37,668 nt of DNA from Jimgerdemannia flammicorona (Eukaryota). Shown here piece after piece: positions 7,333 through 36,500 of this stretch. The notes under the pieces are model-generated. The model did no database searches. It was not told the DNA's origin and saw nothing but the letters and a program-made list of their open reading frames with translations. The position numbers and the translations under genes are program-made. Every line of letters starts with the position of its first letter. Within the stretch, counting starts at the first letter, position 1. The stretch covers positions 1 to 37,668 of the forward strand of contig RBNJ01000184.1 of NCBI GenBank assembly GCA_003990765.1, read 5' to 3'.

Positions 7333-9270
7333 ATGAACACCCTACCCTTCGAGCTCCTTGCCGAAATATTCGCTTATGTTGGGACATTTGCTCCGGCTTT
7401 CTCAAAGACGTGCTCGCAGTTCTACCGCGTCTCCAAGGACGCCACAGCCACCGCTGATCACCTCCTCGTACGATACTCTCGCCTGTTCGCCATCGGCGCC
7501 AGCATCAAGAAACACCCCCACCTGCTTACCCCCGCCGTCACGAATGCACTCTTTGGCAAAGGCGCAGTGATGCCCAGGCACCTAACTCAGAAGACGTGGG
7601 TTTTCTTCCGCCTGCCATCTCTCGAGGCAAGCACCATAGTGCTGAGAAAGGCACGTGAACTCTACGGAATTCTGAGCGTCCTCAATGACGATAAGGCCAT
7701 ATTCCGGCAACTTTCTATTGATTATATTTTTTGCCAGAAACGCAACGCCGTCAGCCAGGTTTCGAGGATCGTCTTTGAGGTCGAGAAATTTATCGAAAAC
7801 ACAAGGTATTGCCCGTTGTATTGCCAAGACTCTTTCGCCGCTGAAATATACTTCATCGTCCAAAACTACCCCCGAGCCCTCGGCGTCTACGAGGGCGCCG
7901 GCCTTGACCTCCACATCCTCTGCAACATCCCTCGCTTCCTCTACGACTTCCTTCACGTCGGCTGGCAAAATCGTCCGCCAACTTCGGGACCTGCCGAGCT
8001 CCTCACCCTCTTCATACAGCACAACCTCCTCGTTATCAGCCCGCGCCACTTCTCCGACCTAGTCCATCTCCTCTCCTCCTGCCAAGCAGTCGACGCCCTG
8101 GCTCCGCTCCACTCGCACCTCCGCTTCAACGTCAAGCCCGTTCTCCTCGAGGCCGCGCTGGATATGGTCCGCATGCTCCCGGCCCGCGGGCATGAGATCA
8201 TAGACATGGCTCTCTGGCTCTGTAAACTCTTTGAGGTACCGGCCGCTAATATCGGCGTCATCATGCAGAAGATCTATGGCATTCCTGACACCTCATTTAC
8301 AGCATCGCCCGAGTTCGTCGGCTCGTTTGCCAGCCCACTCGATCGCGTCGTGTGCGATTGGGCACTCGGGTACGGGTTCGGGTTCGGGTTGGGGTTCGGG
8401 TTGATGGTTGAGGACGCCTTCGAAGTCTGCTTTGATCATGTCGTCATTACACTTGCGGGAAAGGGGTGTACCAAGACTCGGTTTAGCGATCTCGCGCTGT
8501 TCGATCATGCGATGGTGTATTTTGATCGGTTTATCAATGCCGGGGTGCCCGTGACGGAAAGGCATGTGAGGTGGCTGGCGCATAGTACATTGGAGGAGGT
8601 CGTCTTGGCGTTTGTTAAGGCCGTGGAGAGACGAAACGGCATGGGAGTTTTGGAGGAAAAGACGGAAGAGAGAGAGAAGAGGCAAATAGACCTAATGGAC
8701 GAAGGCCCGAAGTTGAAGAAGATGAGGGCGGAAGCAGAGATGGAGACAGAGGTGGAGACAGAGGAGGAGACAAAGATGAAGATGGAGACGAAGACGAAGA
8801 CGAAGGTCAAAAAAAAAACAAAGAGGAAGAAAATCAATCCTCCCTCCCCTCGGAGCCTCAAACCCTCGCTCCACCCTGCGCATGCCGTTCCTGACTTCGC
8901 GGTGGACCCTGCGCGCCAAGCGCTGTGCCGCGTTTTACTCAGGCTACGGACAGATCACGCGCTAGCAATGAAACGGTATGCCAATTGGACACATGAATAC
9001 GCGGACGTTGCCCCGCCGGAGTCGACGAAGAGCTTGTTCCAGGGATTGTTGGAGCGATATCTGGGGATTTCAATTAAGGATGAGATGACGGGCAAGTTGA
9101 GGAGAGCGACGGTCAGGGTGGGGGTGAGGCAGGGGGGAAATCAAGAGGTCAAGCAGATAGTGAACGAGTTTGGAAGGTTGAGCGTTGATGAGCGCGAAGG
9201 CGGGAGGGTGCAGGAGAGGAGTGGGGTCGAGGCTTGGACGAAGAAGAGGAGGATGGTGGAGAGATGTTAA
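7333..9270 (+). CDS. Intronless 645-aa protein with N-terminal F-box-like motif, acidic/basic low-complexity tract and putative NLS
   Basis: Only long intact ORF; GC- and CpG-rich; good start context (acaATG). MNTLPFELLAEIFAYV...SKTCSQFYRVSKD fits the F-box pattern LPxELLxEIF...C..F. KKKTKRKK at ~8810-8832. Confidence 0.9.
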   Translation: MNTLPFELLAEIFAYVGTFAPAFSKTCSQFYRVSKDATATADHLLVRYSRLFAIGASIKKHPHLLTPAVTNALFGKGAVMPRHLTQKTWVFFRLPSLEASTIVLRKARELYGILSVLNDDKAIFRQLSIDYIFCQKRNAVSQVSRIVFEVEKFIENTRYCPLYCQDSFAAEIYFIVQNYPRALGVYEGAGLDLHILCNIPRFLYDFLHVGWQNRPPTSGPAELLTLFIQHNLLVISPRHFSDLVHLLSSCQAVDALAPLHSHLRFNVKPVLLEAALDMVRMLPARGHEIIDMALWLCKLFEVPAANIGVIMQKIYGIPDTSFTASPEFVGSFASPLDRVVCDWALGYGFGFGLGFGLMVEDAFEVCFDHVVITLAGKGCTKTRFSDLALFDHAMVYFDRFINAGVPVTERHVRWLAHSTLEEVVLAFVKAVERRNGMGVLEEKTEEREKRQIDLMDEGPKLKKMRAEAEMETEVETEEETKMKMETKTKTKVKKKTKRKKINPPSPRSLKPSLHPAHAVPDFAVDPARQALCRVLLRLRTDHALAMKRYANWTHEYADVAPPESTKSLFQGLLERYLGISIKDEMTGKLRRATVRVGVRQGGNQEVKQIVNEFGRLSVDEREGGRVQERSGVEAWTKKRRMVERC

Positions 9271-14892: not shown

Positions 14893-17889
14893 AGGAGAGT
14901 AGTGATCTCTATAGCTAGGTGCTAGTACTGAGACCTCTGGGTGATTTAGCTGATAGTAGTAAATATATCTATAGTGAAGAAAGAGGTGGCCAAAGGACTA
15001 ATTGTTAATATCATCAAGGAGTATAAAAATATAGTAGATATTGGATTCAGAGTCTGAGAAGATATAGAGTTTAGAATATAGAATGTAAATATTAGAGTAA
15101 GACTGTTGGATAAGAAGAATACTGGAAAAGAAAGAGATTGGCTAGTAGTACTTAAGTAGAGCCTAATAGAGTACAAGGTCTTGAGGGTGAAGGAGATACC
15201 AGAGGAGGAGGAGGATCTGCTATAGATATTAGAGAATTTGACTAGTACTATTGAGAGGAGAAGGTTGGCCTGAAAGAAGTTTGAGGCTAAGATGGTAGTG
15301 GAGATTATGAATAGTAAGATAGTGTGACTGGATTGGGCTACCTGAAAGAGGTCTCAAGAGAGGCAGCATCAGAAAGATCTGTTGGCAAATTTGGGAGAGA
15401 GTACTGAGGGAGAGAATATCACTAAGAGAGTTGGATTGAGAGTGAGTATCTGGGCAGAGGAGAATAGAGTGGCTCAGAAGACAACCTTGGAGAATAATGA
15501 GAACTTAGGGCAGAGTACAGTAGCTGAAGATAAGGTGATAGTAGAGGGGACCCAAGTTCAGTATAGAGTATCTATAGAGATAATGAGTTGTAGGATGTAC
15601 TGGAAGAGGATTGAGATGAGTCAGTGAGGACAAATACTGATAGCAGTCAGAGAGTTGAGGGGCAGAAGGTGGTCCTGAGAGTAGATAGGCTATTGAAGAT
15701 AAGATATAGTTGTAGAAGGTACTGATGAATATTACAGCTAATGAATTAGGTGAGATGGATTTTCATGTTATTAGTAAGAGATATTGGAGTAATATCTTAT
15801 GAGGAGAAGAAGTGATATGAAAGCTTCAGAATTAGTTAATAGTGACCCTACTAGAGGCAGAAGAGTATAAGGTAGATGACTACAGAGAAGTAATTCTCAT
15901 AGTGATTGTGAATAATTATACAATCTATCTATAGAGCTCTAGGAAGCAATTGACAAAGTGGCAGATAGTGTGTGAGAAGTATAGATCTTCTATAGAAGTG
16001 TAGAATAGTGAGGATTATTGAGAGATTCTGAAGGTACTGAATATTCAGCAGGGGGAGGTAGATGAGATTGAGACAGAGATAAATCTAGATATAGTGAGTA
16101 ATATAGTGAGCATAGAATTATAGAGTGGGGAATCCAACTTCAAACATTATTCAAACATTATTCAACATAAACAGTATAACTAGAAGCTTCTCTTTGAATA
16201 TCAATAGATAGAAGAGTACAGTGAGATATTGGAATATTTTCTGCTAGCTGAGAGAGCTAGATATTGATCTGTTCTTGCTACATAATATAAGATATAATGA
16301 GAACTTGGATATGCTGAACTAAATGAAGGAATGGGGGGAGGGGTGGCCATGTGGAGAGGTAGAGTAGTGTGGGGAGTATGGAAGAAGCCTGGCTGAAGCC
16401 CTTTAACTATTGGGTTATATTACTACCCAGTAGTAAGAAGAGTATGCTTGGAGTGGATAAGAGGACTATAAGATATAGGTACTATAGTAGAGATAGAGAT
16501 AGACTGTTTGGTTAAGAACTTTAACATAGTTCATGATAGGCAGTTGGATAGGACAGATGGAGAGAGAAGGATGGCTGATAGGAGCAGAAGAATAAAAGAC
16601 TGAAAGGAGGTCAAAAGTCTGAGCTCTCTGGTAGATACAGAGTGACTTGGGTAGAGAGATCACAGAGTCTATACTCACTGGGTAGCTGGACTGGGCTTGA
16701 GGATTAACTAGATCTTAACTGCTGAGTACTGGAGAGGAGATGTCTGGAAATCTTTAGAGATAGTTTGGTACTCATAGTTAGATTATTGGAGTCTTCTAGA
16801 TTATAGAAGGTTTGGAAGAAATAGAGAGGGACTTAGATATTAGTATCTGAATACTTCATTACTGGAGAAGCCCTCTTTGTAGAATGCATAGATAGAGAAC
16901 ATTAGCATCAGTATCCTTAGTTGGAGGGAGAAAGAGCTAGAGATAGGAGATTGTTAGAGATAGTTGAAATTGGATACTCAATAGTTTTGAGAAGAGGAAG
17001 AGAGGGCAAGGAGTGCTCAGAGGAGGAGTTGATTATGATGGGCTTTCTGATAGTTAGAGAAGTTATTGATGATATGGGCTGAATTGCTGAAGAACATAGA
17101 GAGGAGAGATTGGAGGGTTCAGTGGATCTGACTTGAGGTAAAGAAACTAAAGAGACTACTGAGACAGGAAGAGGACTTATAAGTGAAGAGTATGATAGCC
17201 TAGTTGCAGGAGCAGAGCTTGGAAGAGGGGAAGAGGTCTACAAAGTTTCTGTTAAGACTTCTCAGACAAGAAGAGTGAGGCAGTAGTGAAAAGGAGTATT
17301 GGATGAGATAAGAGAGATAGTGGTGAGGACTCAGGAGATCTTGGGCCAGTTGAGTGTATAGTGGAGAGACAATTGTAGAGTGAGGAGGAGAGTAGGAAGA
17401 ATGTACTGGACATTGAATAATATCTGAAGAACTGATACTCAGACTCAGTGGAGGACTTGGGTGAACTCAGAGTATTAGTTAAAAGAGAGGAGATCTGTCA
17501 GATATTGGTAATAATAAGTCTTGAAATGGTCCCCAGGGAGGATGGCTTACCTTGAGATTTCTAGAAGAGAATAGTAGACAATCAAGTTGGTTTTGAAGAA
17601 GATGATATACATAGATATATGATGAAGTTATTGACTCAGGGGCTTAAATTGGGAGACAGTACCTAGGTCTTATAGCTCTATTGTATAAGAATAAGAGGAG
17701 AAGAGAGAAGTAAAAGAACTGGAGGCTGATCATACTTCTGAATATAGATCACAAGTTAGTTATGAAGATATTGGTGGCTAGACTATAGAGAGTGACTCAG
17801 TAGATATTGGGAGAGGAGCAGTGAGGCTTCATTAGTAGCTATCTGATAAGGAATAAGATAGTATGGATATATGGTGTCTAGTGCTCCAA

Positions 17890-18220
17890 ATGAGTAAATT
17901 TGAATCAAATCTGGATTCAATTCATCACATGATGGTTTGATCCAAATCTCAAATCTGAAGCAATTTGAATCAACTCAGATTAATCTAAATCACTTCATCT
18001 AAACTACTCAATCTGAACTACTCAATCTGAATCATTCAATCTGAATCACTCAATTCAAATCACTTAATCCAAATCACTCAATCTGAATCATCCAATTCAA
18101 ATCCTCCAATTTGAATTCTCCAATTCAAATTCTTCAATCCAAATCCTCATCTGAATTCTTCTACTGAATCCTTTAATCTGAATCCTCCAATCTGAATCCT
18201 CTAATCTAAATCCTCCACAT
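17890..18220 (+). repeat. Subterminal ~14-bp tandem repeats (ATCTGAATCACTCA-like) of hAT copy A
   Basis: Many aatctgaatc/aatccaaatc units; counterpart at 30510-30800. Confidence 0.85.
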
Positions 18221-18273
18221 GACTCATATGTCAGAGATATCTATATATACAATATATATATATATAAACATAC

Positions 18274-20822
18274 CTATCAACAGATTAGTCTTCAACAGTT
18301 TACAGTACCAATGATGCTTCAAGTCAAATATCCCTAATAGTTCTATACCTTCCATATAATCCTCACTCCAAAATCTGGCAATATTGTACTAAAATGAGAG
18401 ATGATATTATTTGTAACTATTGCAGGTAAAAATATTTTAAAAAAAAAAAGATACACCTATGATATAACTGATACTTTGTTTGATATATATATGATACTAT
18501 TTCATCTACCCCTATAAACTGCACAACTAGAAGTTCAAAATGCTTAGTAGTTCAACTTTAAACATATATTGATACATAAAAGACAAGTACTCTGACAAAA
18601 TCAAAAAGAACACAGAGATGAATAAAATCAATATCTAAGCTATAGCAGATATTTATCTGATTGCCTGACCATTTCTATACCAATAACTTCATTTAATCAA
18701 AAATATTTAATTATACTCTTCAGCAGAATTTTGAAATCAGCTCATTTGTTGGATTATGTATACAGACCAACCATTCATAACTATCGAGAGTAATCAATTG
18801 CATAGTATTTTTGGCCTCCTCAAGCATGATTTATATTTGCTAAATGCCAATACTATTTGCAAAGATGTCCTGAAGGCCTATAGAAAGAGTATAACAATCT
18901 CTGCCAGATACTTCAGGTAAAATAAGAGTAGCACCATGACCTTTGCAAGCTGAATTATATATATATATTTATAAAGAGCTTACCAATTTAATCTCACATT
19001 CAATAAGTAGAATTTGGTAGACAAAATTTCATTTATAATTGACACATGAATATCTCTCAATGCAATTTCATTTCTGGGCATTACCAGTTATTGGATTGAT
19101 CTTGATTGATAGCTTAAATCTCTCACCCTTGACTTCATCAAACTTACTGGCCCTCATTCTGGAGAAAACATCACAGATACTTTTATTCATTGTATTTGAG
19201 AGCTTGGGATCACAACTAAGATAAAAAAGGAGGGCTTGTCATCAAGTTGGCATTTTGAGAGAAGTCCTAAAACAAAACAGATTTTATTGATTATTTATTT
19301 TTGCATAAATTTGTCAACTGAATATTTCAAGTATAGATTTTGACCATTATAATGGACAATACTACAAACAACTCAACATTTTTCCAAGTTTTAGCAAGTA
19401 GCCTTAAATAGAAAAATATGGCCTTTAGTATAGAAAGCTACTATGTATGATGCTAGGCCTACATACTGAACCTCACTGTTCAATACAAATTGGTTGTGTC
19501 AGTCTGATTGTCCCTACAATGATGAGACAAATTCACTATATAGTGTAGGATAATCAGTTTAGCCTCAAAAGAGCTGATATTGGACATCTGTATGTATTGG
19601 AACTCAACATTTGCAATGATCCAGCACATGCTGGAGTTTACTATAGTATGTATCCTTTTTTTCAGTTGGCTGAAGCAACTTGTTTTGGATGATTGAAGTT
19701 TTTTTTTTTTTTTTTTTTTTTAAAAAAAAAACAAAACAAAAAAAGCCAATAGATTCAATAGTTGCTGCTGATAAGAAAATGTAGAGCAAGACTATAGGTA
19801 AAAGTGAGTGGAACATACTTAGAGATATTGTCAGAGATTTAGAAGTAAGTAGTGATTGCTCTGACTCTATACTTATTTTGTCTATCTCTATATAATATAA
19901 TACCTTACTATATAACTGCCAGTGCTTTGATAATTGTATGAAAGATATAGTCAAACAAATGACCCTAAGCTCTGCAATACTAGTATATAACCTTTTGATT
20001 AACTGACTAAAGGATAAGCTTAAGGACAGACTAGAGGATTGCAGTAATTTATAATTAAGCCTGAATCAGAGAGATGCTGTAGAGGTTGCTCTAAGTAAGC
20101 TCAGAAAATACTACTCTAAAACAGATATCACCATATACTCAATCAGTATAGGTATACCAGCATGTAGCTATTGCCTCTTCTAAAATAGAGAAATCTCAAT
20201 AAAACTTGCTCTCTTTCTCTAAACAGTACTAGACCCATGCTTAAAGCTATAATACTATAAAAATCAGAGCTGAGAGCAGTACTATATTGAGGAAATCAAG
20301 CAGGCCATAATTGAAATATACTAGAAAAACTATATACTGCTATAAGGTTCTGACTAAAGTCTAGACAAATATACTGAGAGATCTCTCCTATTCCACATTT
20401 ACTTCAACAGAAAGAGAAAAAGGGAGCCATCAGTAGAAGAGCTACTGTCAATAGATGAACTTACCATTTATCTTACCAGTAACTATATATTTCTGCTGGA
20501 GGGCATAGAGGTACTCAACTGGTAGAAGATAGGTTATTAGGTAGGCAGTTAGTTGTATTGGACTAATTTAATCTACCAACCTAACCACTAATCTAACCAC
20601 TACTCTACCTACTAGGGTGTGTGACCACAGCTATATCAAACAGACTTCTCCAGCCTATGTGGTATAGCTTAAGACTATCTGGTAATTTCAGCCATCAGTA
20701 CTCCCATCAAGTGAGTGTTCTCAGATGGGGTAGATCTCATTGCCCCTAAGAGGTGTATACTGAATACTGAGACAATCCAGATATATATGTATCTGAAATC
20801 TTGATGGGACATGGGCTACTAA
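18274..20822 (+). pseudogene. hAT transposase with introns (copy A), disrupted
   Basis: BED relic SKIWQYC...IICNYC; IDT*ISLNAISFLGIT; IIMDNTTNN; C*AYILNL; C-terminal DYLVISAISTPIK*VFS...LKS*W. Confidence 0.9.
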
Positions 20823-20924
20823 AATTCAGCAGGTTCTAGGGTTTATAGATAATTGGCCTTATAGATTATTTAATACTTTTTAAAATAAAAAGGAAAAAAA
20901 AAAAACCTAAGGACTTAGCCTAGA

Positions 20925-21410
20925 GTTTGCAGCCCAAGTAGAGCAGTAGTCAGCAGGGTTGGTGGCAGTGGAGGGAGTATGCAAAATTTGTGGCCCTCCA
21001 CCAGTAGCAAAGAGCAGCCCCATACTATGTACCTGGGTCAGTGGGTAGGATTAGTAGAGGGAGTATACAGAATTTGCAGCTCCCCACTAGCAGCAAGAGA
21101 CAGCTCTAAGCCACAAGTATCCAGAGTAGAGGGGGTTGATGGAGGGGACAGAGTAGACAGAGGGAGCATGCAAAATTTGCAGCCCTCTACTAGCAGCATG
21201 GAGCACCTCCAAGCAGCCTATACTCAGACCAGAGGGTCAGCAGAGTTGGCAGAGAGAGTACACAAAATTTGCAGTCCTCTGCCAGTAGCAAAGAGGTAAC
21301 CCCAAGTTACCAAGGAATCCAAGTCTAGGTCAGAGGGTGCTTCTGGTGGTCAGAGGGTACTTCTGGCAATCAAAGAGTGCTTCTAGTGGTCAGAGAGTGC
21401 TTCTGGTAGT
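20925..21410. repeat. Internal GC-rich tandem repeats of hAT copy A (core GCAAAATTTGCAGCCCTC..CAGCAGCAAG..GCAGCCCCAAG; then ~21-bp GGTCAGAGGGTGCTTCTGG units)
   Basis: Four to five recurrences of the long core and ~4 short units; counterpart at 27240-27730. Confidence 0.85.
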
Positions 21411-21651
21411 TGAAGTCTACTACAGATTTGGACCCTATCACTAGTTTGGGTCTCATGGGCACTCTGGTTCTGCACTGTAGTACTATATTGGCAGCACTAC
21501 AAGAGTAGAGTCAAGGGGCTAGTAGGACCCAGCATAATGGTTATACTAGTGCTACAGAAAAAAGCACCTGGCTGCCAGCCCAACCCCCCAAAAAAGACTG
21601 CCCAACCTGTATAAAATAACTGCTGAACTCTTACAAAAGATTGTCTAACCC

Positions 21652-23627
21652 TCACAAAAACTGCTCCATCTGCTAGTTCTAGGCCTTGATGAGCCTGTTA
21701 TCTATTGTGAGTATGACAACTATTATATCCAAGCTCTCCTCAAAGGTGACAGTACCATGGTAGTCATGTGGTTAGAATAGAATGACTATATTGGCTATAA
21801 ATAGAACCCTAAAACTATAGGTGAGATTGTACCAGACTTCACCACTGTCCTTCTAAGTTGGGCCCCTCCTTTTTGGAATATAAAATATTACTGGGATGAC
21901 ATTGTTGTCTGTATATATGGGCAGAGAAACATTATGCCCAATATATTCTGATGTGATCCAAGCATATGGTTAAGTGAACCCTTGGCTCAGAACTTCATAC
22001 TATCAGGCAGTGCTAGAGGATACCTGTCCTTCATTAAGTCTCAGAAGTCCTAGCTTAGAAATCTATCCAAAATAGATGGCATCCAGTCAGTTCTTTTCAT
22101 ATATAGGAAGCAGAAACCCCAGGCTGCATCCAAAAAAGCAGAGCTCCTCACCTCATATGGCATGCTAAATTGCATCAAAAATATATGTACAGCTGTATCA
22201 AGATCACTACCAAGCTGGCCTGCCATATACTCTACCAACCTACTCAAAAAAACCCCAGATCATAGCTGCTATCACTATATAGGCCATATTGTGCTTATAT
22301 ACAGTTTTCTCTTTGATGATACTTTTAAAGTTCCAATAGAAGTACAGAATCTTGTGTATCTCTAGAATTATATCAAAAAGAGTATATCAGTAAGAGATTA
22401 ATTACCTGGGGAGGAAATAAAATAAAAAAAAAGAGAGATGAGTATAGGGGATTTCAGAACTTCAGAACTCCAGAATCCACTCTTTGTCAATATTGTGATA
22501 TATCCAATTCCTATCCAAACTCCCCCTTCTTGCTTTTTTTGCCTCCTCTTTTCTACTACCTAGTATTTGATACAATTCTTACAAACCTCATTGATATAGT
22601 AGTGAAGCTCATTACTGTAGAGATTCCTCATCACTATTGTAACCACCTCTCTATGATTATTAATAATGATATAATTCTCTTTGTTATTGAATACTTCTGC
22701 TGGCCAATGGACCCCTTGATTGAGAATGATTGGCTCCAATTCAAATATAGACCCCCAAGCCTTGATAGTGATACTGGTACTGCTCATACTAAACATTTTG
22801 CCCTTAAACTTCTCTATTTGATCAGATGCCAGATATAGTCAAACTTGAGTAACTTTGAATTCTCTCTTTCAATAGAACTGAGCCCTGATCTGAAGAGCTG
22901 AGTTGTGTGTGGACAGATTGCATACAAATGAGTTGTATGTAGATATTGTGTGAGAGTTTTTAGGAGAGACCACATAAAAATGAAGTTAAATAAAACACAG
23001 AGATGGGTATTTTCAGAAAAGAGTATATGTGAGTAAGTTATATATCAACAAGTTGCATACCAATGAGTTGCATAAGATTGCTCATGAAGGCTTACTTCTG
23101 TTCCTTTTGAGATCTCTGCTATATGATACATTGACTTAACAGCTTAGCCACCAAAGGTATATTCTACAATATCCTCCAGCCTTTCTTCATCTTGACCAGA
23201 TATTACAAATAAAGTCAGCAGATCTTGCCATAAAGCTATAAACCCTAAGAAAAGCATGATGTGAATTAGGTCATGCTGAGAGAATTTAAAACAAGTAATG
23301 AGCTGTAGACTTTAAGAAGAGTATAAGATGAATTGAGTTATGTTGGGGAAATTTAAATAAGTAGCAGCAGAAAAGAGCAACCTATATCTACTATCAGCTG
23401 CTCCAAAAGGCTACTGTATATATAGCTATGAGGTCTATGAATTCCAAGATCCAAAGGGCCACCATGAGTTATTGCTGGAATTCTCCCTCATCTCTACTAT
23501 TGCCATTACCATCACCACTACTACTACTCTCAATGAGCAGCTTATATACTGCCCATATGAGAAAGAATCTAACATTGTCAACAGAGAGTATGTTTTCACC
23601 TTGAATACTCTCTCTTTTGACAATTAT
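21652..23627 (-). pseudogene. hAT cargo gene (copy A): multi-exon, C-terminal 2OG-Fe(II) dioxygenase-like domain, disrupted
   Basis: Colinear homolog of 24878-26969. Reads SLPI(Y)TDNN...WYNLTYSF...PHDYHGTVT, with the HxD His codon changed CAT>TAT (~21913-21915). Confidence 0.75.
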
Positions 23628-24449
23628 TGCAGGAGTAGACTGACCAATGTACAATTAAGGACTGCTGTTTTGTTTGCTTATAATATAGTAGAAAAGAAAA
23701 AGAATAAAGAAAAAGAACAAAGAAAGAACAAAAGAAGAGAAGAAATAAAAGAAAGGGTGATATCACCAAAGTGTAGCAGGAAAGAAAAACAGAACAAAAG
23801 AAAGGGTGATATTACTAAAGATTTTATATAATCAATCCAGATCAATTCAAATCAATCCAGATCAGATCATGAGACCAATCTGAGTTGATTTGAATCCATC
23901 ACATGATGAATCTGATCTGAATCTTATCTGAATAAATTGCATCCATTTAGAGCACTAATAGTGTTATTAAAGAAGTATATATATATTATAGAGGTAGATA
24001 ATCATCTAGTATTTCTGGACCAGGAGAAGGCTTATAATAAGTCTGGTGAGTATAGCTGGAGAGAGTACTGAAATATATTGGAATTCCTCTAAAACTTTGA
24101 TAGTCTTTAGTCAGTCTATTGGAGAAGAGTCAGGTAAATAGACATAGAGAGGTTTTATTTCTCTTGGGCAGAGGAGTACTACAAGGGGATCTGCTATTAC
24201 TGATTCTTTATACCCTCTCCTTAGAGCCTCTACTGGATAGGATTCAGTGCAAGATAGGGAAGTTGAATATTCTTAGTATAAATTGGAAGATAGAGACTTT
24301 ACTAATGATATAGTAGTTGGACTGGACTCAGTAGAGGATATGATAGTACTGAAGAGAGCTGTAAAATAGTATAAAGAGTACTCAGATACTAAGCTTAACT
24401 AGTATAAGTATGAGACTATAGTGTTAGATAGAGGGATAGTGCTCCAAAC

Positions 24450-24650
24450 GGATAGAGTTGATCCGGATGAGATTTGATTCAGATTCGTCATGTGATAGAT
24501 TTGAATCAACTCAGATTGGTCTCGTAATCTGATCCAGATTGATCCATCTAGATTGATCCATCCAGATTGATCCAGATTGGTCCATCCAGATTGGTCCATC
24601 CAGATTGGTCCATCCAGATTGATCTATCTGGATTGATCCATCTGGATTGA
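24450..24650. repeat. Subterminal 10-15-bp repeats (GATTGGTCCATCCA/GATTGATCCA) of hAT copy B
   Basis: Tandem gattgatccatcca units; a shorter array lies at 23830-23945 in copy A. Confidence 0.85.
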
Positions 24651-24877
24651 AATCTTTGGTGACATCACCCTTTCTTTTATTTATTTCGCTCTTGTTTTTT
24701 TTTCCTGCCACACTTTGGTGACATCACCCTTTCCTTTTGCTCCCTCTCTTCTTTTGTTCTTTTCTTTATTCTTTTTCTTTGTTCTTTTTCTTTGTTCTTT
24801 CCTGCCACATCATGAGCAAACAAAACAGCAGCCCTTAATTCATATGTTGGTCCAGTCTACTCATTTTTCACTCTGCA

Positions 24878-26969
24878 ATGATCATCAAAAGAGGGAGTAT
24901 TTGAGGTGGAAATATACTCTCTGCTGACAATGTTAGATTCTTTCTCATATAGACAGCACATAAGCTGCTCATTGAGAGCCAAAGAGGTGATGGTAGTGGC
25001 AGTGGTGATGGCGATAGTGATGGCAGGGATGAGGGAGAATTCCGGCAACAACTCACAGCAGCCCTTCAGACCTCGGAATTCACAGACCTCACAGCTATAT
25101 ATGTGGCAGCCTTTTTGTAGTAGCCAATAGTAGATGTAGGTTGTTTACTCAGCCACCACTTGTTTACTTGTATTTATTTAAACTTCCCCAGTATGACTCA
25201 ATTTACCTCATGCTTTTCTTAGGGTCCACAGCTCTATGGCAAGATCTGCCAACTTTATTTGCAACATCTGGTCAAGATGAAGAAAGGCTGGTGGACATTG
25301 TAGGATATACCTTTGGTGGCTGAGCTGTTGAGTCAATGCATCACGTGGTGGAGATCTCAAAAGGAACAGAAGCAAGCCTTTGTGAGCAATCTTGTATAAC
25401 TCGTGCAACTTGTCAGCATGCAACTCGTCAGTGTGCAACTCGTCAGCATGCAGCTCACTCACTCACTCACTCACACTCTTTTTCTGAAATACCCATCTCT
25501 GTGTTTTATTTAATTTCATTTTTACATGGTCTCCTCCTAAAAAACACCCACACCTGCATGCAACCTGCCTACATATAACCCGCTATATACAACCTGCCTG
25601 CTGTAACCCACCTGCACACAACCCGCCCATAACCCACCTGCACACAACCCGCCCACATGCAACCTGCCCACACGCAACTCATCTGCATGCAACCCATCTG
25701 CACGCAACCCATCCATATACTTATCTTGGTCCCTCAGATCAGGGCTCAGTTCCATTGGAAAGGAGAGTTCAAAGTTACCCAAGTTCAACTATGTCCAGCA
25801 TCTGATCAAATAGAGAAATTCGAGGGCAAGATGTTCAGCATGAGCAGTACCAGCATCATCATCAAGGTTTGGGGGTCTATATTTGAATCAGAGCCAATCA
25901 CACTTGACCAAGGGGTCCATTGGCCAGCAGGAGTAACCAACAATAAAGAGAACCATATCTTTATTAACAAATACGAAGAGGTGGTTGTGATGGTGGTAAG
26001 GAACCTTTACGGTGACAAGCTTCGCCACCACATTAATGAGATTTACAAGGATTGTATCAAATATCAGGTGGCAGGAAAGAGGGGACAAAAAAAGCAAGGA
26101 GGGGGGGTTTGGACAGGAATTGAGTATACTGCAACACTGGTGAAGAGTGGGTTCTGGAGTTCCAAAATCTCCTGCACTCATCTCTCTTTTTTTTTAACCC
26201 CTCCCCAGATAAATCACACTCTTTGCCGACATACTCTTTTTGATACAATTCCAGAGATACACAAGATTCTGTACCTCTACCAGAACTTTAGAAGTGCTGT
26301 CGAAGAGCAAACTGCATGTGAGCACGACACGGCCTGTGTAGCAATGGCGGCTATGATCTGGGGTTCTTTGAGCAGATTGGTAGAGCATACGGCAGGCCAG
26401 CTTGGTGGTGATCTCAGCGCGGCTGTACGTACATTCTTGGTGCAATTTAGTGTGCCATATGAGGTGAGGAGCTCCACTTTTTCAGAGTGCTGCAGCCCGG
26501 GGGGTTTTTGCCCCCCCGCATGCAAAAAGGACTGACTGGTTGCCATCTGTTTCAGCAGGTTTCCAAGCCAGGGCTTTTGGGGCTGGACCAAGGGCAGGCA
26601 TCCACCAGCACAGCCTAGCAGTATGAGGTTCTGGGCCAAGGGTTCACCCAACTGTATGCTTGCATCACATCAGGATATGACAGGCACAACCTTTCTCTGC
26701 CTATACATATAGACAATAATGTCACCCTGGTAATGTTTTATATCCCGGAAAGGAAGGGCCCAACCTTGGAGGATAGTGGCAGAGTCTGGTATGACCTCAC
26801 CTATGGTTTCGGGGTCCTGTTTACAGCCAACACAGCTGTTCTATTCCAACCACATGACTACCATGGCACCATCACCTAGGAGGAGAGCTTGGATATAATA
26901 GTTGTTGTACTCACAATGGATGATAGGCTCATTAAGGCCTGGGACTGGCAGGTGGAGCAGTTTTTGTGA
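24878..26969 (+). pseudogene. hAT cargo gene (copy B): predicted 5 exons, ~500 aa, C-terminal TET/JBP-like 2OG-Fe(II) dioxygenase domain; several premature stops
   Basis: Predicted exons 24878-25135, 25223-25393, 25738-~26130, ~26209-26463, 26556-26969. Introns 1, 2 and 4 have GT..AG ends and join in phase 0; the intron 3 donor is unresolved. Exon 5: ITSGYDRHNLSLPIHIDNNVTLVMFYIP...GRVWYDLTYGFGVLFTANTAVLFQPHDYHGTIT (HxD 26706-26714, distal His 26862-26864). Confidence 0.75.
25395..25715 (+). repeat. ~15-bp tandem repeats (GCAACCCGCCTGCAC-like) inside predicted intron 2 of the cargo gene
   Basis: Arrays at 25395-25455 and 25548-25715; markedly fewer units in copy A (~22895-22950). Confidence 0.8.
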
Positions 26970-27239
26970 GGGTTAGGCAATCTTTCGCAAGGGTTAGGCA
27001 GCCATTTTGTGCAGATTAGGCAGCTATTTTATACAGATTGGGCAGTCTTATGTGGGCCAGGTGCCTCTTATGTAGTACTAGCTTAGCCATTATACAGGGC
27101 CCTACCAGCCCCTCGGCCCTACTCTGTAGTGCCACTGGTACAGCACTGTGGTGCAGGGCTGGGGTGCCCGTGGGACCTGAACTGGTGACTTCGACCACCG
27201 GAAACGCCCTCCAACCACCAGAAGCTCCCTCCACCCTGG

Positions 27240-27730
27240 ACTTCTTGGTGGCTTGGGGCTGCCCCTATGCTGCTGGCAGAGGGCTGCAAATTTTGTGTGC
27301 TCCCTCCGCCTGCCCTGTCCATCCCAGACACTTGCGGCTTGGGGCTACCCCTTGCTACCAGCGGAGGGCTGCAAATTTTGTGTGCTCCCTCTGCCAACTC
27401 TGCACCTGCCAACCTGCCAACCGACCCTGCCCACTGACCTGGGCACTGACAGCTTGGGGCTGCCCCTCGCTGCTAGTGGAGGGCCACAAATTTTGCATGC
27501 TCCCTCCACCTACTCCCCCAACCTGGACACTTGCAGCTTGGGGCTGCCCCTTGCTGCCAGTGGAGGGCTGCAAATTTTGTGCACTCTCTCCACCAACCCA
27601 CCAACCCACTCACTGACCTGGGCACTGGCAGCTTGGGGCTGCCCCTTGCTGCTGGCTGAGGACTGCAAATATTGTATGCTCCCTTTGCCACTGCCACCAA
27701 CTCCACCCCACTTGGGCCACAAACTCCAGG
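27240..27730. repeat. Internal GC-rich ~80-120-bp tandem repeats of hAT copy B
   Basis: Five recurrences of gcttggggctgcccc..gctgc..g.ggagggctgcaaattttg. Confidence 0.9.
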
Positions 27731-27838
27731 CCAAGTCCTTAGGTTTTTTTTTCCTTTTTTATTATTTTGAAAGGTATTAATTTGAAAGATATTAAATATT
27801 CCACAAGGCCAACCAACTTATCTGCGACCTGCTGAATT

Positions 27839-30409
27839 TTAGCAGCCCGAGCCCCACTAAGACTTCAGACACATATATGCCTGGATTGTCTCAGCATTCA
27901 GTGCACACCTCTTTGGAGCAACGAGATCCACCCCACCTGAGAACACCCACTCGACAGGAGTGCTGGAGGCAGGAATCGCCAGGTAGTCCCGAAACATACC
28001 ATACAGACTGGGGAAGTTCGTTTAATGCAGCTGTATGCCCTGGTGGATAGAGTGGTGGTTAGATTAGTAGGTTAAATTGGCCCAACACCCACTTGACAAT
28101 GCCCATCTGACAACCCACCTTCCACCAGTTGGGTACCTCCATGCCCTCCAGCAGGATCATACAGTTGCTGGCAAGGTAAATGGTGAGTTCATCTATTGAC
28201 AGCAGCTCTTCCACTGACAGCTCTCTCTTCCTCTTTCTGCTGAAGTAAATGTGGGACAGGAGGGAACCCTCAGCATATTCATCCAGACTTTGGCCAGAAC
28301 CTTGCAGTAGTGTGTAGTTTTTCCGGTACACTTCAATTATGGCCTGCTTGGTTCTCTCAATGAAGTGCTGCTCCCAGTCCTAATCTTTATGGTATTGTAG
28401 CTTTAAGCATAGGTCTAGCACTGTTCAAAGAAAAGGAGAGTTTTTGTGGGGTTTCCTCTGTTTTGGAAGGGGCAACAGCCATATGCCGATATCAACACAC
28501 CTGTACTGATTGAGTATATGGCGGTATCTGTTTGGAAGTAGTATTTCCTGAGCTTACTTAGAGCAACCTCCATGGCATCTCTCTGATCCGGGCTTAACCA
28601 TAAATCACTGCAACCCTCCAGCCTGTCCTCAAGCTTGTCCTCTAGCTGGTCAATCAGAAGATTGTATACTGGTATCACAGAGCTTATTGTCGGGGTCATT
28701 TGTTTGACTATATCCTTCGTACAATTGTCAAAATACTGGCAGTTATATATGGTGAGGTGTTGCATTATATAGAGGCAGACAAAATGAGTGTAGAGCCAGA
28801 GCAACCACCACTTACTTCCAAAACTCTGACAACATTCCTAAGTATATCCCACTCACTTTCACCTAGAGCCTCAGCCCATATTTCCTTGTCAGCAGCCATT
28901 GTTGAATCTATTGGCTTTTTTTTTTTTTTTTTTTTTTAAAAATAAATCTTCTATCATCCAAAATAGTTGCTTCAGCTGACCAAAGAAAAAAAGGATGCAT
29001 ACCACAGCAAACTCTAGCATGTGCTGGATCATTGCAAATATTGAGTTCCAACACATATAGATATCCAATATAAGCTCTTTTGGGGCTAAACTGATTGCCC
29101 TACACTGCACAGTAAATTTGTCTCATCATTGTGGGGACGATCGGACTGACACAACCAGTTTATGCAGCTTGGAAATTATACTCAGGGCCCCTCCTCTCTT
29201 GGATGTTTTGTCTACATGCATAAGATAGTCCTGAATAGTGAGGTTCAGTACATGGGCCTGGCATCGCACATAGCAGCTTTCTACACTGAAGGCCATGTTT
29301 TCCTGTTTGAGGCTGGCTGCTAAAGCTTGGAAAAATGTTGAGTTATTTGTGACATTGTCCATTATAATGGCCAAAATCTATACTTGAAATATTTGGTTGG
29401 CGAATTATGTGAAAATAAATAACCAACAAAATCTGTTCTATATAAGGACCTCTCTCAAAACACTGACCTGATAGCAAGCCCCCCTTTTTTTACCTTGGTT
29501 GTGATCCCAAGCTCCTGGATACAACTAATAAAAGTATCTGCGATGTTGTCTCCAGAATGAGGGCCAGCAAGTTTGACAAAGTCAAGAGTGAGAGATTTAA
29601 GCTGCCAATCAAGATCAATCTAATTACCAGTAATGCCCAGAAATGAAATTGCATTGGGGGATGTCCATGTGTTGATCATAATGAAATTTTGCCTACTGAA
29701 TTCTGCTTATTAAATGTAAGGTTAAATTGGTGAGCTCTTTTATATAATTCAGCTTGCAAAGATCATGGTGCTGCCCTTATTTTATCTGAAGTGTCTGGTA
29801 GAGATTGTCATGCTCCTTCCTATAGGCCTCCAGGACATCTTTATGAATAGTATCAGCACTTGGCAAATATAAATCATGCTTGAGGAGACCAAAGATGCTA
29901 TACAATTGATTACTCTCAATGGTTGTGAATGGCTGGTCTGTGCACACAATCCAGCAAATGAGCCAATTTCGAAATTCTGCCAAAGAGTATGGCTAAATAT
30001 TTTTGATTAAATGGCATTGTTGGTATAGAAATGGTTGGGCAATCAGATAAACATACCCACTACAGCTTGGATGTCGATTTTATTTGTCTCTGTGTTTTTT
30101 TTGATTTTGTCAGAGTGCTTGTCTTTTATATGTCAATTCATGTTCGAGATCATACCACCAAGCATTTTGAACTTCTGGCTGGTGCAGTTTATAGGGTTGG
30201 ATAAAATAATATCATGTGTGTGTCAAACAAGTCAATAGGTGCATCTTAATTTTTTACCTGCAATAATTACAAATAACATCATCTCCTATCTTAGCACAAT
30301 GTTGCCAGATTTCAGAGCGAGAATTGCGTGGAAGGTGTGGAACTATCAGGGATGTTTGACTTGAAGCATCATCAATACTGTGAACTGTTGAAGACTGATC
30401 TGTCGACAT
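27839..30409 (-). pseudogene. hAT transposase with introns (copy B): BED finger, DDE core, hATC dimerization domain; disrupted
   Basis: MSTDQSS...SEIWQHC...VICNYC; FRNWLICWIVCTDQPFTTIES; NTWTSPNAISFLGIT; IIMDNVTNN; VRCQAHVLNL; FPSLYGMFRDYLAIPASSTPVEWVFSGG...CLKS*W. Confidence 0.93.
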
Positions 30410-30509
30410 GTGTGTTTGTGTGTTTACATGTGTATGTGTGTATATGTGTGTATATTATGTATACATATATGTGTAATGTGTTGTGGACATGTCCAGCATA
30501 TGAGTCATG

Positions 30510-30800
30510 TGGAGGATTTGGATTGGAGGATTCAGTTGAAGGATTTAGATGAGGATTCAAATTGGAGGATTCAGATTGAGTGATTCAGATTGAGTGATTC
30601 AGATTGAGTAATTCAGATTGAGTGATTTGGATTGAGTAATTTGGATTGGGGTGGTTCAGATGGATGATTCAGATGGGGCAATTTGGATGGGGTGATTTGG
30701 ATTAATCTGAGTTGATTTGGATGGCTTCAGATTTGAGATTCAGATCAAACTGTCATGTGACGAATTGAATCCAGATTTGATTCAAATTGACTTATTCAGA
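30510..30800 (-). repeat. Subterminal ~14-bp repeats at the transposase-proximal end of hAT copy B
   Basis: gattcagattgagt units. Confidence 0.85.
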
Positions 30801-32739
30801 GCACTATAGAGGGATAATAGGTGATAATGTGATTGGAACAGTTGTCCTGACAGAAGAGGTAGTGTATTATTTGAGAAGCTACTTCTCAGTATATAGTTCT
30901 CTATTACCTAGAAGATAGTGAGAGTAGTGACTGGTAGAGTGAGAGAATATGCTCTTAGAGTAGGGAGGCTAGTATGTATATCTTACTGATAGAAAGGGTA
31001 ATAGTGTTGAATATATATTGGCTATTAAAGTTATAGTATCTAGAATATTACTTGGACTTTTTGATATAGGTGGTCAAGAGATTATTGAAGATGACCAGAA
31101 TCTGGATATAGGCTGGACAGTAGAGTTAGATTGATTGAAAGATATTGATATTGCCAGTAGACCAGGGGGGGCTGAGTCTGGTAGACTTTACCAAGTATCT
31201 ATACTACTTACAGATATAGTGGCTAAAGTGAGCTAGTAAGCTGAGAGATCATGAGTGAGTACCTCTAATGTAGTGAGTATAGAAGGTATAGTTCTCTTCC
31301 TATGATATATCTAGTGACTTGCTTTCTTTAGTAGTATTAGAGAGGAGCCAAAAGATGTGCTTTAGGAAATTCTGGTGAGGAGTAATTGATGGAGCTCATC
31401 ATATTGACCTCTATTGACAGAGTGATAAGGGAGAGATAGACTGGAGACCTCAGATATAGAGGTGAAACTGTCTTTTACTAGAGAGTATACTAGTGGATAA
31501 CTTTAGTTTGGAGAATAGTATGGAGTATCTTCAAGAGTATGGAAGAGATTTGTAGCTGGAGACTTGGTAGGGGATAGAGATTGGTAAAGAGTGGGACTGA
31601 AATAGTATTTGATCATAGAGCAAGCTAGTGGTATAGTGGATTCCTCTTAAGTTTTAGATAGCATGATGGAGGCTTCTATAGTATAATGTGATGTTGAATT
31701 TTCAGTCAGAATATCTGATGAAAGGGAATATCTCAGAGTGTGAGAAGTGTTTTAATATTGAGTAAGAAGAGGGAATAGTATAGACCTCTAAGTATTAGCT
31801 AAGAGAGTATGAAGTAATGAAAGACTTCCAGAGAGTAATTGAGGGTCAAATAGGGGTATATACTTCTAAGCTAGTAGTAGATGGAAGGTGGAGTGATCTC
31901 TGAAGGAGATTGGTGAGAGAGGTTGATAATGAGTAGTTAACTATTAGGTGGACTTTGACTATTTGAGTTGAACTTACCAGATATTGGCTATATATATTTG
32001 AGGATAGCTAGTGGTTGGTGCTTGAGATATAGATTGTAAGATAGAAATAGTTAATGCTGAAGCTTTTGAATAGTTGATGGTGGGGTGGAGTCCTAGAGGG
32101 GGGCTCTGGTAGAGACTTGTAAAGAAGATTTAAAGACAGAGTGAGGGGAGAATTAGTGTAGCAAGAGAGATGGTGACATTCTGGAGAGATAAAGAGAAGA
32201 GAAAGCTCCTTATAGGATTGGGTGAGGGGTTTGTTTATCTGTATTAGTATAAGTATATCATAGACTAGTTGGTAATAAAGTAGAAGTCTAAGTAACTATA
32301 AAAATATATATATATATATATATATAATATCTAGTATAGTTACTCTTATGGTTGTTATTATATACTACTTATATATTATATAAATAGTCTAATATACAAA
32401 ATTAGGACAAATTCTATTCTTATTAGAAATACTTATACTACTTAAGTACTTATATCTAATATATATATCTATACTTAATAGAAATATCTATTCTCTAAAG
32501 AAATATCTTTTTAAATTAGCATTATTGCACATTCTCTAATTATTTAGATAGTAACCAGATAACAACCATACTTATATAAATACTCCAGAGATTTAAGTGA
32601 ATAAACCTCAGTCTAAAAAGTTCAAAAAATAAAAGTTAATTATCTAGTATACTTAGGAGAAGAATACTAAGCTATTGCTGAGAAGTTATAAGCTATTTTT
32701 TTCCACTCTAGTCTACTTTCTGATATAAAAAAGATCTGA

Positions 32740-33594: not shown

Positions 33595-36500
33595 GCTCTC
33601 AAAGATTCCATACTATCCTCTAAACTGAAATTATCCACTGATATACTCTCCAATAGAAGACAGTCTCACCTTTATATCCAGGGTCCCCAGTTCTCCTTCC
33701 CCTCATTACCTCACTACTAGAGACCAATTTATCAAGTACTGTCAATTACTCTCTACCAGAATCTCCTATAGTATATCTTCTAGCTCTCCTTTAGTATCAC
33801 CAGAGAGAGTAAGTCACCAGATATACCATGAGGAGAGAACTGTACCTTCTATACTCTCTGTATAAGGAGTATCTACTTTTAACCTCTCAACTTACTAGCT
33901 CACTTTAGCCACCATACTCTTAAGTAGTATAGATGCTTGGTAAAGTCCACCAGATCTAGCTCTCTCTAATCTACTAGCAATATCATCATCTTCCATCCAA
34001 TCTGACTCTACTGCTCCACCTAAATCTACATTCTAGTCATCTTCAATAGTCTCTTGACTATCTATATTAGGAAGTCTAAGTAATACTCTAGATATTACAA
34101 CTTAGATAGTCAATATATATTTAACACTATCACTCTTCTAGCCAGAGAGATATATCAGCTACCTTATTTCAGAAGAGTACTGCCTCACTCAATCAGCTAC
34201 TACTCCTACTATTTCTGAGACAATAGGGAACTATATACTGAAAAGTAGATCTCTAGATATCAGACCATCTCTTCTGTTGGGGCAACTGTTCCAATCACAT
34301 CTCCTCCTACTATTTCTTTATCTAATACCAGAGTCTTATACTTATACCAGTTAAGCTTAGTATCTAAGCACCTCTCATACTATTCCACTATACCTTTCTG
34401 TACTGCCACATTCTCCACAGAGCTCAGCTCTACTACTATATTATCAGCAAAGGCACCCACCTTCTAGTTTACTCTCAGAATATTCAACCTCCCCACTCTA
34501 TATCTAATTCTGTCCAACAAAGGCTCCAGAGAGAGAGCATAAAGGATTAGTGATAGTGGGTCTCTCTGCAGCACTTCTCTGCTCAGGGGAAAAGACTCTC
34601 CCCTATATTCATTCACTATAATAGCTGTCTGACTCCTCTTCAACAAACTGATCAAAGATTGTCTAAACCCTTGGAAGATCTCTATATATTTCAGCACTCT
34701 CTCTAGCCACACTCACTGGACTCTATCATAGACCTCTTGGTCCAGAAATACTAGCCAACCATCTACTTCAGTAGTACATACTCTTTAAATAATATTGTAG
34801 ATCCATACTGTCTCATCTCTTATCAAATAACCCCCAACAAAGTCTCTCTGCTCTGCCCCCAATACTTGCTGAGCCACTCCTTACAATCTAGTCATCAAAA
34901 TCTTTGTAACCAACTTGTGATCTATATTCAGAAGCATGATCAGCCTCTAGTTCTTCCAATTCTCTCTTTTTTTCTAATTCTTATACAACAGAGCTACAAG
35001 ACCCAAGTGCTGCCTCCCAATCTAGGTCTCTGAGCCAATAATCTCATCATATATTTACATCATCTCCTTCAAAGCCACCTTCACCCCTACAATCCTCTTC
35101 TAGAAATTCCAAGGTAAACTATTCTCTTCTGGGATTATTCCAATACTCATCATCACTAATACCCTACAGATTTCCTCTCCTTAAACAGATACTCTAAGTT
35201 CACCTAAGCCCTCTGCTGAGTCTAGATATCAATCTATCAGATGGTATTCAATATCCAGTATATTCTCTCTCTCCTCCTTCTCACTTCTCAATTACTTTTA
35301 TTAGAAACTCAATTAGTCTAAGATCTCTGGAGTTCTGATCACTATCTCTTCTATCTCATCCAATACTCCTTTCCACTGCTGTCTTACTCTCCTTGTCTAA
35401 AGCAGACTTGATAAAAACTTCATAGATCTCTCCCCCTCCTCCAAGCCCTGCCACCTCAGCCAGATTACTATACTCTTGATCTGCAATTCCTCCTCCTGCC
35501 TAAGCAGCTCCTTCAGTTCTTCTACCTTCAGCTAAATATACTGAACCCTCCAATCTCTCTCCTCTCTATCATTTAGTAATTCCACTCACTTCTTCAATAG
35601 CTTCTCTAACCTCTGGGAAGCCCACCTTAAATAACTCCTCCTCTGAATACCCCTCCCCCTTCTTGCCTCTCTCCAGAACTACTAGATATCCAATTTCAAA
35701 TACTGCTAATAATCCTCAATCTCCAGCCCCTACACTCTCTAGCTAAAAATCCTGAAGCTAATGTCTACTACCCATACATCCCACAAAGAGAGTTCTTTTA
35801 GCAATGAAGTATTCAGATGCTAATGTCCAGACTCCTTCCTACTTCCTCTGAATCTTCTACAGTTTAGCAAACTCTAGTAATCTGATCATAAGTACCAAAC
35901 TGTCTCTAAAGAACTTCAGACATCTGCTCCCCAGTACTCAGCAGTCAAGATCCAGTCAATTCTTGAACTCAGCCCTACTATCTAGTGAGTATAGACCTTG
36001 TGTTCTCTCTACCCAAGATACCTATCATCTATCAGTAAGCCCAGTCTCTCAATCTCCTCCCAGTCTTCTATCTCTTTACTCCTACCAAACATCTCTCTCT
36101 CTCTATTAGTCCTGTCCAACTGTCCATCCTGTATTATATTAAAGTTGCTACCCAGATAGTTAATTCCTTCTGCTATCATTGTATCTATATCTTATAGTCC
36201 TCTTATCTACTCTAAGTGCTCCCTCCTCTCTACTGAGCAATACATAACCTAATAGTCAAGGGGCTCTAGCCTAGCTACCTCCACACTCTCCACACTACCC
36301 TGACTCCCTAATGTCCAATATTCTAATGTCTCTCTTGCTCTTTCTAATTAGAATACCCACCCAACTCTACTATATAGCTATTTCTCTCTATTCTCTTATT
36401 CAGTCTAGTATATCAAAGTTTACATTATATTCTATATCCTATAGTAAGAACAAATCTGCATCCAGCCCCTTTAATTAGCTGAAAATATTCTGACACCTCA

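Follow-up and report, generated by a model that had tools for sequence, protein, structure and literature searches.

What is the second gene that lies opposite the transposase in two hAT transposon copies of Jimgerdemannia flammicorona, and could it encode an enzyme that acts on methylated DNA? The copies are found in contig RBNJ01000184.1 (assembly GCA_003990765.1), of which positions 1 to 37,668 of the forward strand, hereafter the window, were analysed (37,668 nt). An earlier reading of the letters alone, here called the sequence-only reading, had proposed that both copies hold, between their terminal inverted repeats (TIRs), a hidden multi-exon gene for a TET/JBP-like dioxygenase dependent on Fe(II) and 2-oxoglutarate (2OG). 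The best explanation we find is that each copy is the relic of an autonomous hAT element with a five-exon passenger gene, most likely for an Fe(II)/2OG dioxygenase of the TET/JBP-like kind borne by fungal transposons, closest to the published PE type but with HxD in place of its HxE motif. We give this explanation a probability of roughly 60%.

Two inverted copies of one element of about 6.1-6.4 kb were detected by repeat finding (inverted-repeat pairs I2-I25) and by blastn (20 segments, 71.6-88.8% identity), oriented with their passenger-gene ends toward each other. Coordinates of all features are collected in Table 1. The termini of both copies start with TAGTGCTC, in the extended pattern TAGTGCTC[CT].AA, and in copy B the left TIR agrees with the reverse complement of the right one at 10 of the first 12 bases, both mismatches being transitions. 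Matching flanks are obtained in both copies only with an 8-bp register of the target-site duplication (TSD). The hAT C-terminal dimerisation domain PF05699 was found on the minus strand of copy B and was recovered in a read-through frame too (E 1.2e-10); beyond it, no transposase Pfam domain (DDE or RNase-H-like core) was matched in the three read-through frames of the decayed gene. The TIRs, the 8-bp TSDs and PF05699 together make the element a canonical hAT. Since the TSDs differ between the copies, they represent two separate insertions of an element whose content was by then complete, and a segmental inverted duplication was rejected on the same grounds. The second gene, convergent to the transposase, occupies the same place inside both copies, and was thus carried before either insertion took place. 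In this part the sequence-only reading was borne out.

The gene was modelled on the plus strand of copy B with five exons, GT..AG introns that are all in phase 0 and a predicted length of about 467 codons. Splicing at GT..AG sites had been said to join the exons in frame, and the phase-0 model agrees. Introns 3 and 4 were read directly and have good donor and polypyrimidine-AG signals, whereas the two upstream introns are a model, their junctions having been chosen among 11 (exons 1-2) and 10 (exons 2-3) frame-compatible GT..AG pairs. That both copies are broken is confirmed by four in-frame stops in copy B, at 24902, 24950, 26616 and 26877, and by many more in copy A. The two in exon 1 are a TGA at 24902, where copy A has CAA, and a TAG at 24950, where copy A has TGG.

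The passenger is a real gene with some coding constraint. Copy B holds a 300-codon open frame over exons 3 and 4 despite about 20% divergence between the copies. It has no in-frame stop in exon 3 and two in exon 5, against four to nine in the wrong frames. Among the codons that differ between the copies, the synonymous share in frame is 0.34 for exon 3 and 0.38 for exon 5, and 0.10-0.24 in the wrong frames; when pooled, 48 of 133 such codons are synonymous in frame and 48 of 255 in the wrong frames (Fisher odds ratio 2.4, p 3e-4). Differences between the copies fall on codon positions 1, 2 and 3 in the numbers 50, 38 and 76 (chi-square p 0.001), a skew which is partly one of composition, as 32%, 33% and 44% of the mutable C/G sites differ at the three positions. 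Gaps between the copies were counted as none in the exon 2, 3 and 5 intervals and two in exon 4, hence two events in four exon intervals, against ten in three intron intervals (two to five in each) and 14 in the intergenic stretch. The exon 2 interval used in this count was 25223-25380 (87% identity), which overlaps the modelled exon 2 only at 25223-25299.

Relatives of the predicted protein are rare. A HMMER scan of 1,835,955,588 representative proteins with exons 3-4 gave two matches at E <= 0.001: P0001 (128 aa, 35% identity, E 2.5e-18), which spans exon 3, and P0002 (55 aa, 51% identity, E 5.1e-7), which spans exon 4. Each forms an unnamed cluster of its own and comes from a short metagenome contig. 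Undecayed members of the family therefore exist elsewhere, yet very few of them are represented in protein databases. No relative was returned by word-indexed protein searches with exons 3-4 (among longer proteins and those of near length) and with exon 5 (among longer proteins), search windows which left out lengths of 464-526 aa, the range of the modelled protein. Locus scans with the exon alignments A1 and A3 gave no confirmed relative in metagenome contigs, viral contigs and prokaryote genomes. A search of sequencing runs for RNA data containing the element returned no RNA run, and one soil-metagenome run with a small share of its words. WD40 rows (Tako8, coatomer) in a single-sequence search of the PDB were rejected as summed weak repeat matches to a 30-residue stretch.

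The start of intron 3 (26140-26175), read in frame as ..VKSGFW.., is similar both to how P0001 ends (..SPGKFF..) and to the PE-type FDW motif. This likeness to coding sequence makes intron 3 the least certain of the four introns; it may be partly coding, have its true donor elsewhere or be a recent gain. In the dioxygenase-like domain, exon 3 would account for the N-terminal part.

The enzyme class is suggested by exon 5. Its HxD motif is H51-I-D53 (26706-26714), and the distal histidine, H103, lies in an HGT motif (26862-26870; His codon 26862-26864) exactly 52 residues past H51, as the sequence-only reading had stated, so that copy B has the HxD/E...H arrangement of an iron-binding triad. 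Across the two copies D53 (GAC) and H103 are invariant, and H51 is Tyr in copy A by a C>T change (CAT to TAT). The arginine that usually binds 2OG had been reported as not visible. An arginine, R124 (26925-26927), is however invariant in both copies and aligns by eye with the Arg of the C-terminal ..R[LV] of the PE type, which is shared by the six PE sequences that are listed far enough towards the C-terminus; R124 is probably the 2OG-binding residue.

When the 86-aa core of exon 5 was compared by ESM Atlas features, the ten best family-bearing matches shared a family or clan, with a top score of 0.90 and a recognition value of 2669 against a reference mark of 2300, which the guidance of the tool grades as a lead and not as a result. 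Of the six rows listed, five bore PF13640 (2OG-FeII_Oxy_3) and the sixth had no common family. The PF13640 matches are phage proteins of about 112 aa.

TET/JBP genes within complete DNA transposons were recently described for 11 lineages in rusts, Agaricomycetes and Pezizales (Kojima, Biology 2025, PMC12730594). The PE type was defined there in Pezizales and Agaricales by the hallmark HxE, which replaces HxD. It reaches the TET homologue CMD1 only at an HHpred E of 1.4, while the structures predicted for it resemble those of CMD1, NgTET and CcTET with E < 1e-5 (PMC12730594). Compared by eye, the passenger and the PE type share eight collinear blocks over about 300 residues, from an N-terminal strand to the C-terminal RL[IV]K. 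In the order passenger against PE type, these are NHIFI against NYIFV (N-x-IF); VVVMVVRN against IVAMVYRN or LVAVVIRN (VV.RN); INEIYKDC against VNEIIIKEC (NEI..K.C); AAMIWGS against FALFWNM (an A..W helix); GYDR against NY[AS]R, directly ahead of the metal-binding His (Y.R); FYIPER against FWTTER (F.[IT].ER); YG..., followed by N T. V. F Q P ... H G T, against YG..., followed by N T. V. W Q [PT] ... H G T; and RLIKA against RLVKL at the C-terminus. One gapless block has 10 identities in 33 positions with Helitron-1_TuBo, and the His-to-His spacing of 52 compares with 51 in the two PE sequences counted (TuBo and MoIm). P0001 bears the same N-terminal blocks as the passenger and the PE type. Like the passenger, PE-type genes travel in transposons, have HGT at the distal His and are unseen by ordinary sequence profiles.

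The remaining published types are less similar. By eye, the PU type was rejected, since its GG.MW.IGWRK, PH.D..D and Y.HCT are absent and the passenger has GGGVWTGIEY, PIHIDNN and YHGT instead. The sequence-only reading knew of no hAT that carries such a gene, and this has been overtaken by a report of December 2025 on 20 TET-carrying hAT families in Puccinia, named hAT7 for their 7-bp TSDs and equipped with a PU-type TET (PMC12730594). They too are hAT-superfamily elements with a TET/JBP-like gene beside the transposase, but their termini are of the CAACGG/CAGCGA type, and in three of these families both genes are read in one direction with the TET upstream, whereas in the present element the genes are convergent, the TSDs 8 bp long and the start TAGTGCTC. 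With its 8-bp TSD the element falls outside hAT7 as defined (PMC12730594). No consensus in the visible parts of that supplement, other parts of which may include a related hAT family, starts with TAGTGCTC. Further TET/JBP genes, cited in the same article, are associated with Kyakuja-Dileera-Zisupton (KDZ) and Plavaka transposons of basidiomycetes, among them CcTET of Coprinopsis. They share with our element the concept of a DNA transposon carrying an oxidase of 5-methylcytosine (5mC) that probably counters silencing, but belong to another transposase superfamily, and AG-type motifs were not seen by eye in the passenger. CcTET has been tested biochemically, while the passenger is known here from its sequence. 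A literature search for hAT transposons with a JBP-type dioxygenase in fungi found PMC12730594 and nothing closer.

The resemblance to 2OG-Fe(II) enzymes could also stem from a dioxygenase of another subfamily, prolyl-hydroxylase-like or PF13640-like, with a protein or a small molecule as its substrate and encoded by a captured host gene. We consider this unlikely, even though the ESM Atlas family is PF13640 and not Tet_JBP, the Tet_JBP profile has no match and the carboxylate is the Asp typical of most 2OG oxygenases rather than the Glu of the PE type. The collinear PE-type blocks, seen by eye, extend into N-terminal exons that lie outside the minimal PF13640 domain, and PF13640 is likewise without a hidden Markov model match to the passenger. 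The small phage oxygenases of PF13640 form the clusters that ESM features place nearest to the 86-aa core, but they are similar in size to this query, lack the long N-terminal region of exons 3-4 and were retrieved with a score graded as a lead.

For the TET/JBP-like identity proposed by the sequence-only reading, the ESM lead and the PE-type alignment by eye speak in favour, and the following results weigh against it. Pfam gave no match for any exon or read-through frame (exon 5 to E 10, read-through frames to E 0.1), and within these limits the Tet_JBP profile (PF12851) was unmatched. Searches of PHROGs and NCBIfam gave nothing credible for any exon, and a profile search of PDB sequences gave nothing. 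AlphaFold2 models were unusable and lend no support to the fold, with a mean predicted local distance difference test (pLDDT) of 35.7 for exon 5 (2-row alignment) and 38.5 for exons 3-4 (4-row alignment). The ESM lead is a weak one, since it shares 135 of 256 features where matches within a family usually share at least 170, and its family is not Tet_JBP; exons 3-4 had no usable ESM Atlas match. Only two decayed copies of the element underlie the alignments, and the comparison with PE, PU and AG sequences, which included eight of the PE type (Table S1 of PMC12730594), carries no scores. The passenger has HxD where the PE hallmark is HxE, and the stretch from its Y.R motif to the metal-binding His is about four residues longer. 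None of five four-residue words from the passenger was found in the readable text of the supplement of PMC12730594, which indicates that the passenger is not close to any TET listed there. We therefore regard the passenger as PE-like and not as a member of the PE type. The silence of the profile searches is what a PE-type relative would give, considering the HHpred E of 1.4 for that type (PMC12730594). A complex prediction of exons 3-4 with the exon 5 core scored 0.00, which is not evidence either way.

These same results could be taken to mean that the passenger is a genuine accessory protein of the transposon and no dioxygenase at all. No profile or fold computation supports a double-stranded beta-helix, an HxD with a later His is a low-information pattern, and a resemblance found by eye may be over-read. 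We hold such a coincidence to be improbable, since in the ESM comparison of the core exon all listed family-bearing rows point to 2OG-Fe(II) oxygenases, with a recognition value above the mark, the low-confidence exon 5 model is all beta-strand, and the His-to-His spacing and several flanking motifs fit the PE type by eye. The absence of any second gene, with open reading frame (ORF) fragments and splice sites arising by chance in transposon-internal DNA, might be argued from the merely modelled upstream exons and the stops in both copies, but is hardly credible in view of the P0001 match among 1.84 billion proteins, the long open frame of copy B, the frame-specific synonymous excess and the scarcity of gaps in exon intervals.

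The history of the element, under the dioxygenase explanation, may be depicted as follows. An autonomous-type hAT would have carried its transposase and the passenger gene through at least two insertions. In the passenger protein, H51, D53 and H103 of exon 5 would hold the iron and R124 would probably bind 2OG. If it worked like CcTET and further TETs carried by transposons, the enzyme might have oxidised 5mC on the element's own DNA, a reaction that would work against silencing by methylation and against the C-to-T hypermutation in its wake. From these comparisons we infer how the passenger folds, to which family it belongs, what it acts on and that it opposed silencing. A more far-reaching and tentative suggestion is that the TET/JBP-like dioxygenases borne by transposons include a fourth lineage, so far unclassified, to which the passenger belongs. 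It would be sister to the PE type, would have kept the ancestral HxD and would have been captured independently by a canonical hAT with 8-bp TSDs, in a lineage of fungi that the published survey did not cover.

Both copies were killed by a repeat-directed C-to-T hypermutation that is broader than CpG decay. In the passenger region 411 of the 465 substitutions between the copies are transitions. The stops had been attributed to C>T and G>A changes; for exons 3 and 5 of both copies this explains 10 of the 12 stop-containing codon columns from a sense codon, and the columns at 26766 and 26877 need a transversion. Conversion of cytosines was scored only where the 3′ neighbour is identical in both copies. 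In copy A, 45 of 45 CpG, 313 of 842 CpA (37%), 138 of 439 CpC (31%) and 51 of 665 CpT (8%) were converted, compared to 1 of 1 CpG, 63 of 592 CpA (10.6%), 33 of 334 CpC (9.9%) and 25 of 639 CpT (3.9%) in copy B. The observed/expected ratio of CpG stands at 0.005 in copy A, compared with 0.22 in copy B. The description of the repeats as CpG-eroded thus fits the complete loss in copy A but is too narrow, as CpA and CpC were also heavily hit. The high CpC rate differs from the CpA-dominated repeat-induced point mutation of Neurospora and from the TCG pattern of rusts (both as given in PMC12730594). A transposon-borne 5mC oxidase is proposed to counter such C-to-T hypermutation in the discussion of that article. 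Copy A, with every scorable CpG and about a third of its CpA and CpC converted, would then show what becomes of an element whose counter-defence has been overcome.

For a counter-defence of fungal transposons against DNA methylation and C-to-T hypermutation, the TET-like enzymes that they carry are the clearest candidates. To our knowledge, no transposon-encoded protein of the PU or PE type has been tested at the bench. The concept, a TET-carrying hAT included, is already in print (PMC12730594), and the advance made here is incremental. New are the 8-bp-TSD hAT and its PE-like passenger with HxD, which are absent from the visible parts of the dataset of PMC12730594. This pairing of carrier and enzyme supports a repeated passage of TET-like genes between transposon superfamilies.

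Table 1. Features of the window. Positions are those of the 37,668-nt stretch.
Feature	Position	Strand	Details
Dsl1_C (retrograde transport protein) Pfam match	2845-3231	-	sub-threshold; E 1.3e-4, 22.2 bits vs cutoff 30
Single-exon ORF, intact	7333-9270	+	645 codons from first ATG; most GC-rich part of the window (0.44-0.56 GC)
Copy A TSDs	17871-17878 and 23958-23965		ATGGTGTC / ATAGTGTT; 6/8 identical, both differences transitions
hAT copy A, inverted, heavily hypermutated	17879-23957	-	6079 bp; blastn, ends read directly
Copy A intergenic tandem repeats	20960-21295		~84-115 bp units, between convergent genes
Copy A exon 5	21655-22065	-	
Copy A exon 3	22488-22889	-	
Copy B left TSD	24429-24436		TAGAGGGA; identical to right TSD
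hAT copy B, less decayed	24437-30806	passenger +, transposase -	6370 bp; repeat finding, blastn, ends read directly
Copy B left TIR	24437-24450	+	TAGTGCTCCAAA...
Left subterminal array	24532-24650		14-bp repeats, 8.8 copies, core CAGATTGA
Exon 1, putative	24878-25102	+	75 codons, ATG at 24878; model only
Intron 1	25103-25191	+	89 nt; model only
Exon 2, putative	25192-25299	+	36 codons; model only
Intron 2	25300-25737	+	438 nt; model only
Exon 3	25738-26139	+	134 codons, stop-free in copy B; P0001 match
Intron 3	26140-26208	+	69 nt, GTGAAG..CCCCAG
Exon 4	26209-26463	+	85 codons, stop-free in copy B, helix-rich; P0002 match
Intron 4	26464-26555	+	92 nt, GTGAGG..TTTCAG
Exon 5	26556-26966, then TGA (to 26969)	+	137 codons; HxD, distal His, Arg
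Copy B intergenic tandem repeats	27263-27705		~84-115 bp units, between convergent genes (families D4, D5)
PF05699 (Dimer_Tnp_hAT)	27857-28021	-	E 8.8e-12, 45.1 bits vs cutoff 21.4
Decayed hAT transposase region	27857-30400	-	includes PF05699
Right subterminal array	30529-30674		14-bp repeats, 10.6 copies, same core CAGATTGA
Copy B right TIR	30793-30806	-	copy B end is the complement, TAGTGCTCTGAA
Copy B right TSD	30807-30814		TAGAGGGA; perfect 8-bp match to left TSD
Inverted repeat pair	30977-31524 and 33607-34154		548 nt, 76% complementary; 2082 nt between arms

The subterminal arrays at the two ends of the element are probable binding sites of the transposase. Between the convergent genes, four to five tandem repeats were found, and each encloses a GC-rich core that resembles a palindrome around CAAATTTTG. 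The repeats may serve both genes as a common terminator or binding array. Putative intron 2 contains 15-29-bp C/A-rich repeat expansions in copy B only (25404-25713), and copy A is about 160 bp shorter there. Upstream of the passenger ATG, at a distance of about 150-220 bp, GGTGACATCACC occurs twice (24658-24669 and 24717-24728), and copy A has GGTGATATCACC at 23767 on the minus strand. Both are one or two transitions away from GGTGACGTCACC, a palindrome of the cAMP response element (CRE)/basic leucine zipper type (TGACGTCA) with a central CpG. The CRE-like TGACGTCA sites may be a methylation-sensitive promoter element of the passenger gene, in which case the methylation state of the element would in turn influence how strongly the demethylase is expressed.

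The window as a whole is transposon-rich eukaryotic DNA with 38.5% GC and a CpG observed/expected ratio of 0.18. In the spacer between the two copies (23966-24428) lies a reverse-transcriptase-like fragment (..FLDQEKAYNKS..), part of which recurs inverted at 34309-34452 with 74% identity, and the hAT copies consequently sit in older retroelement debris. The intact single-exon ORF opens with an F-box-like LPFELLAEIF, for which Pfam F-box matches reach only E 0.1, and is likely a host gene that was spared the hypermutation of the repeats. The Dsl1_C-like stretch may be a fragment of a host gene, and the 548-nt inverted repeat pair is probably a further decayed element.

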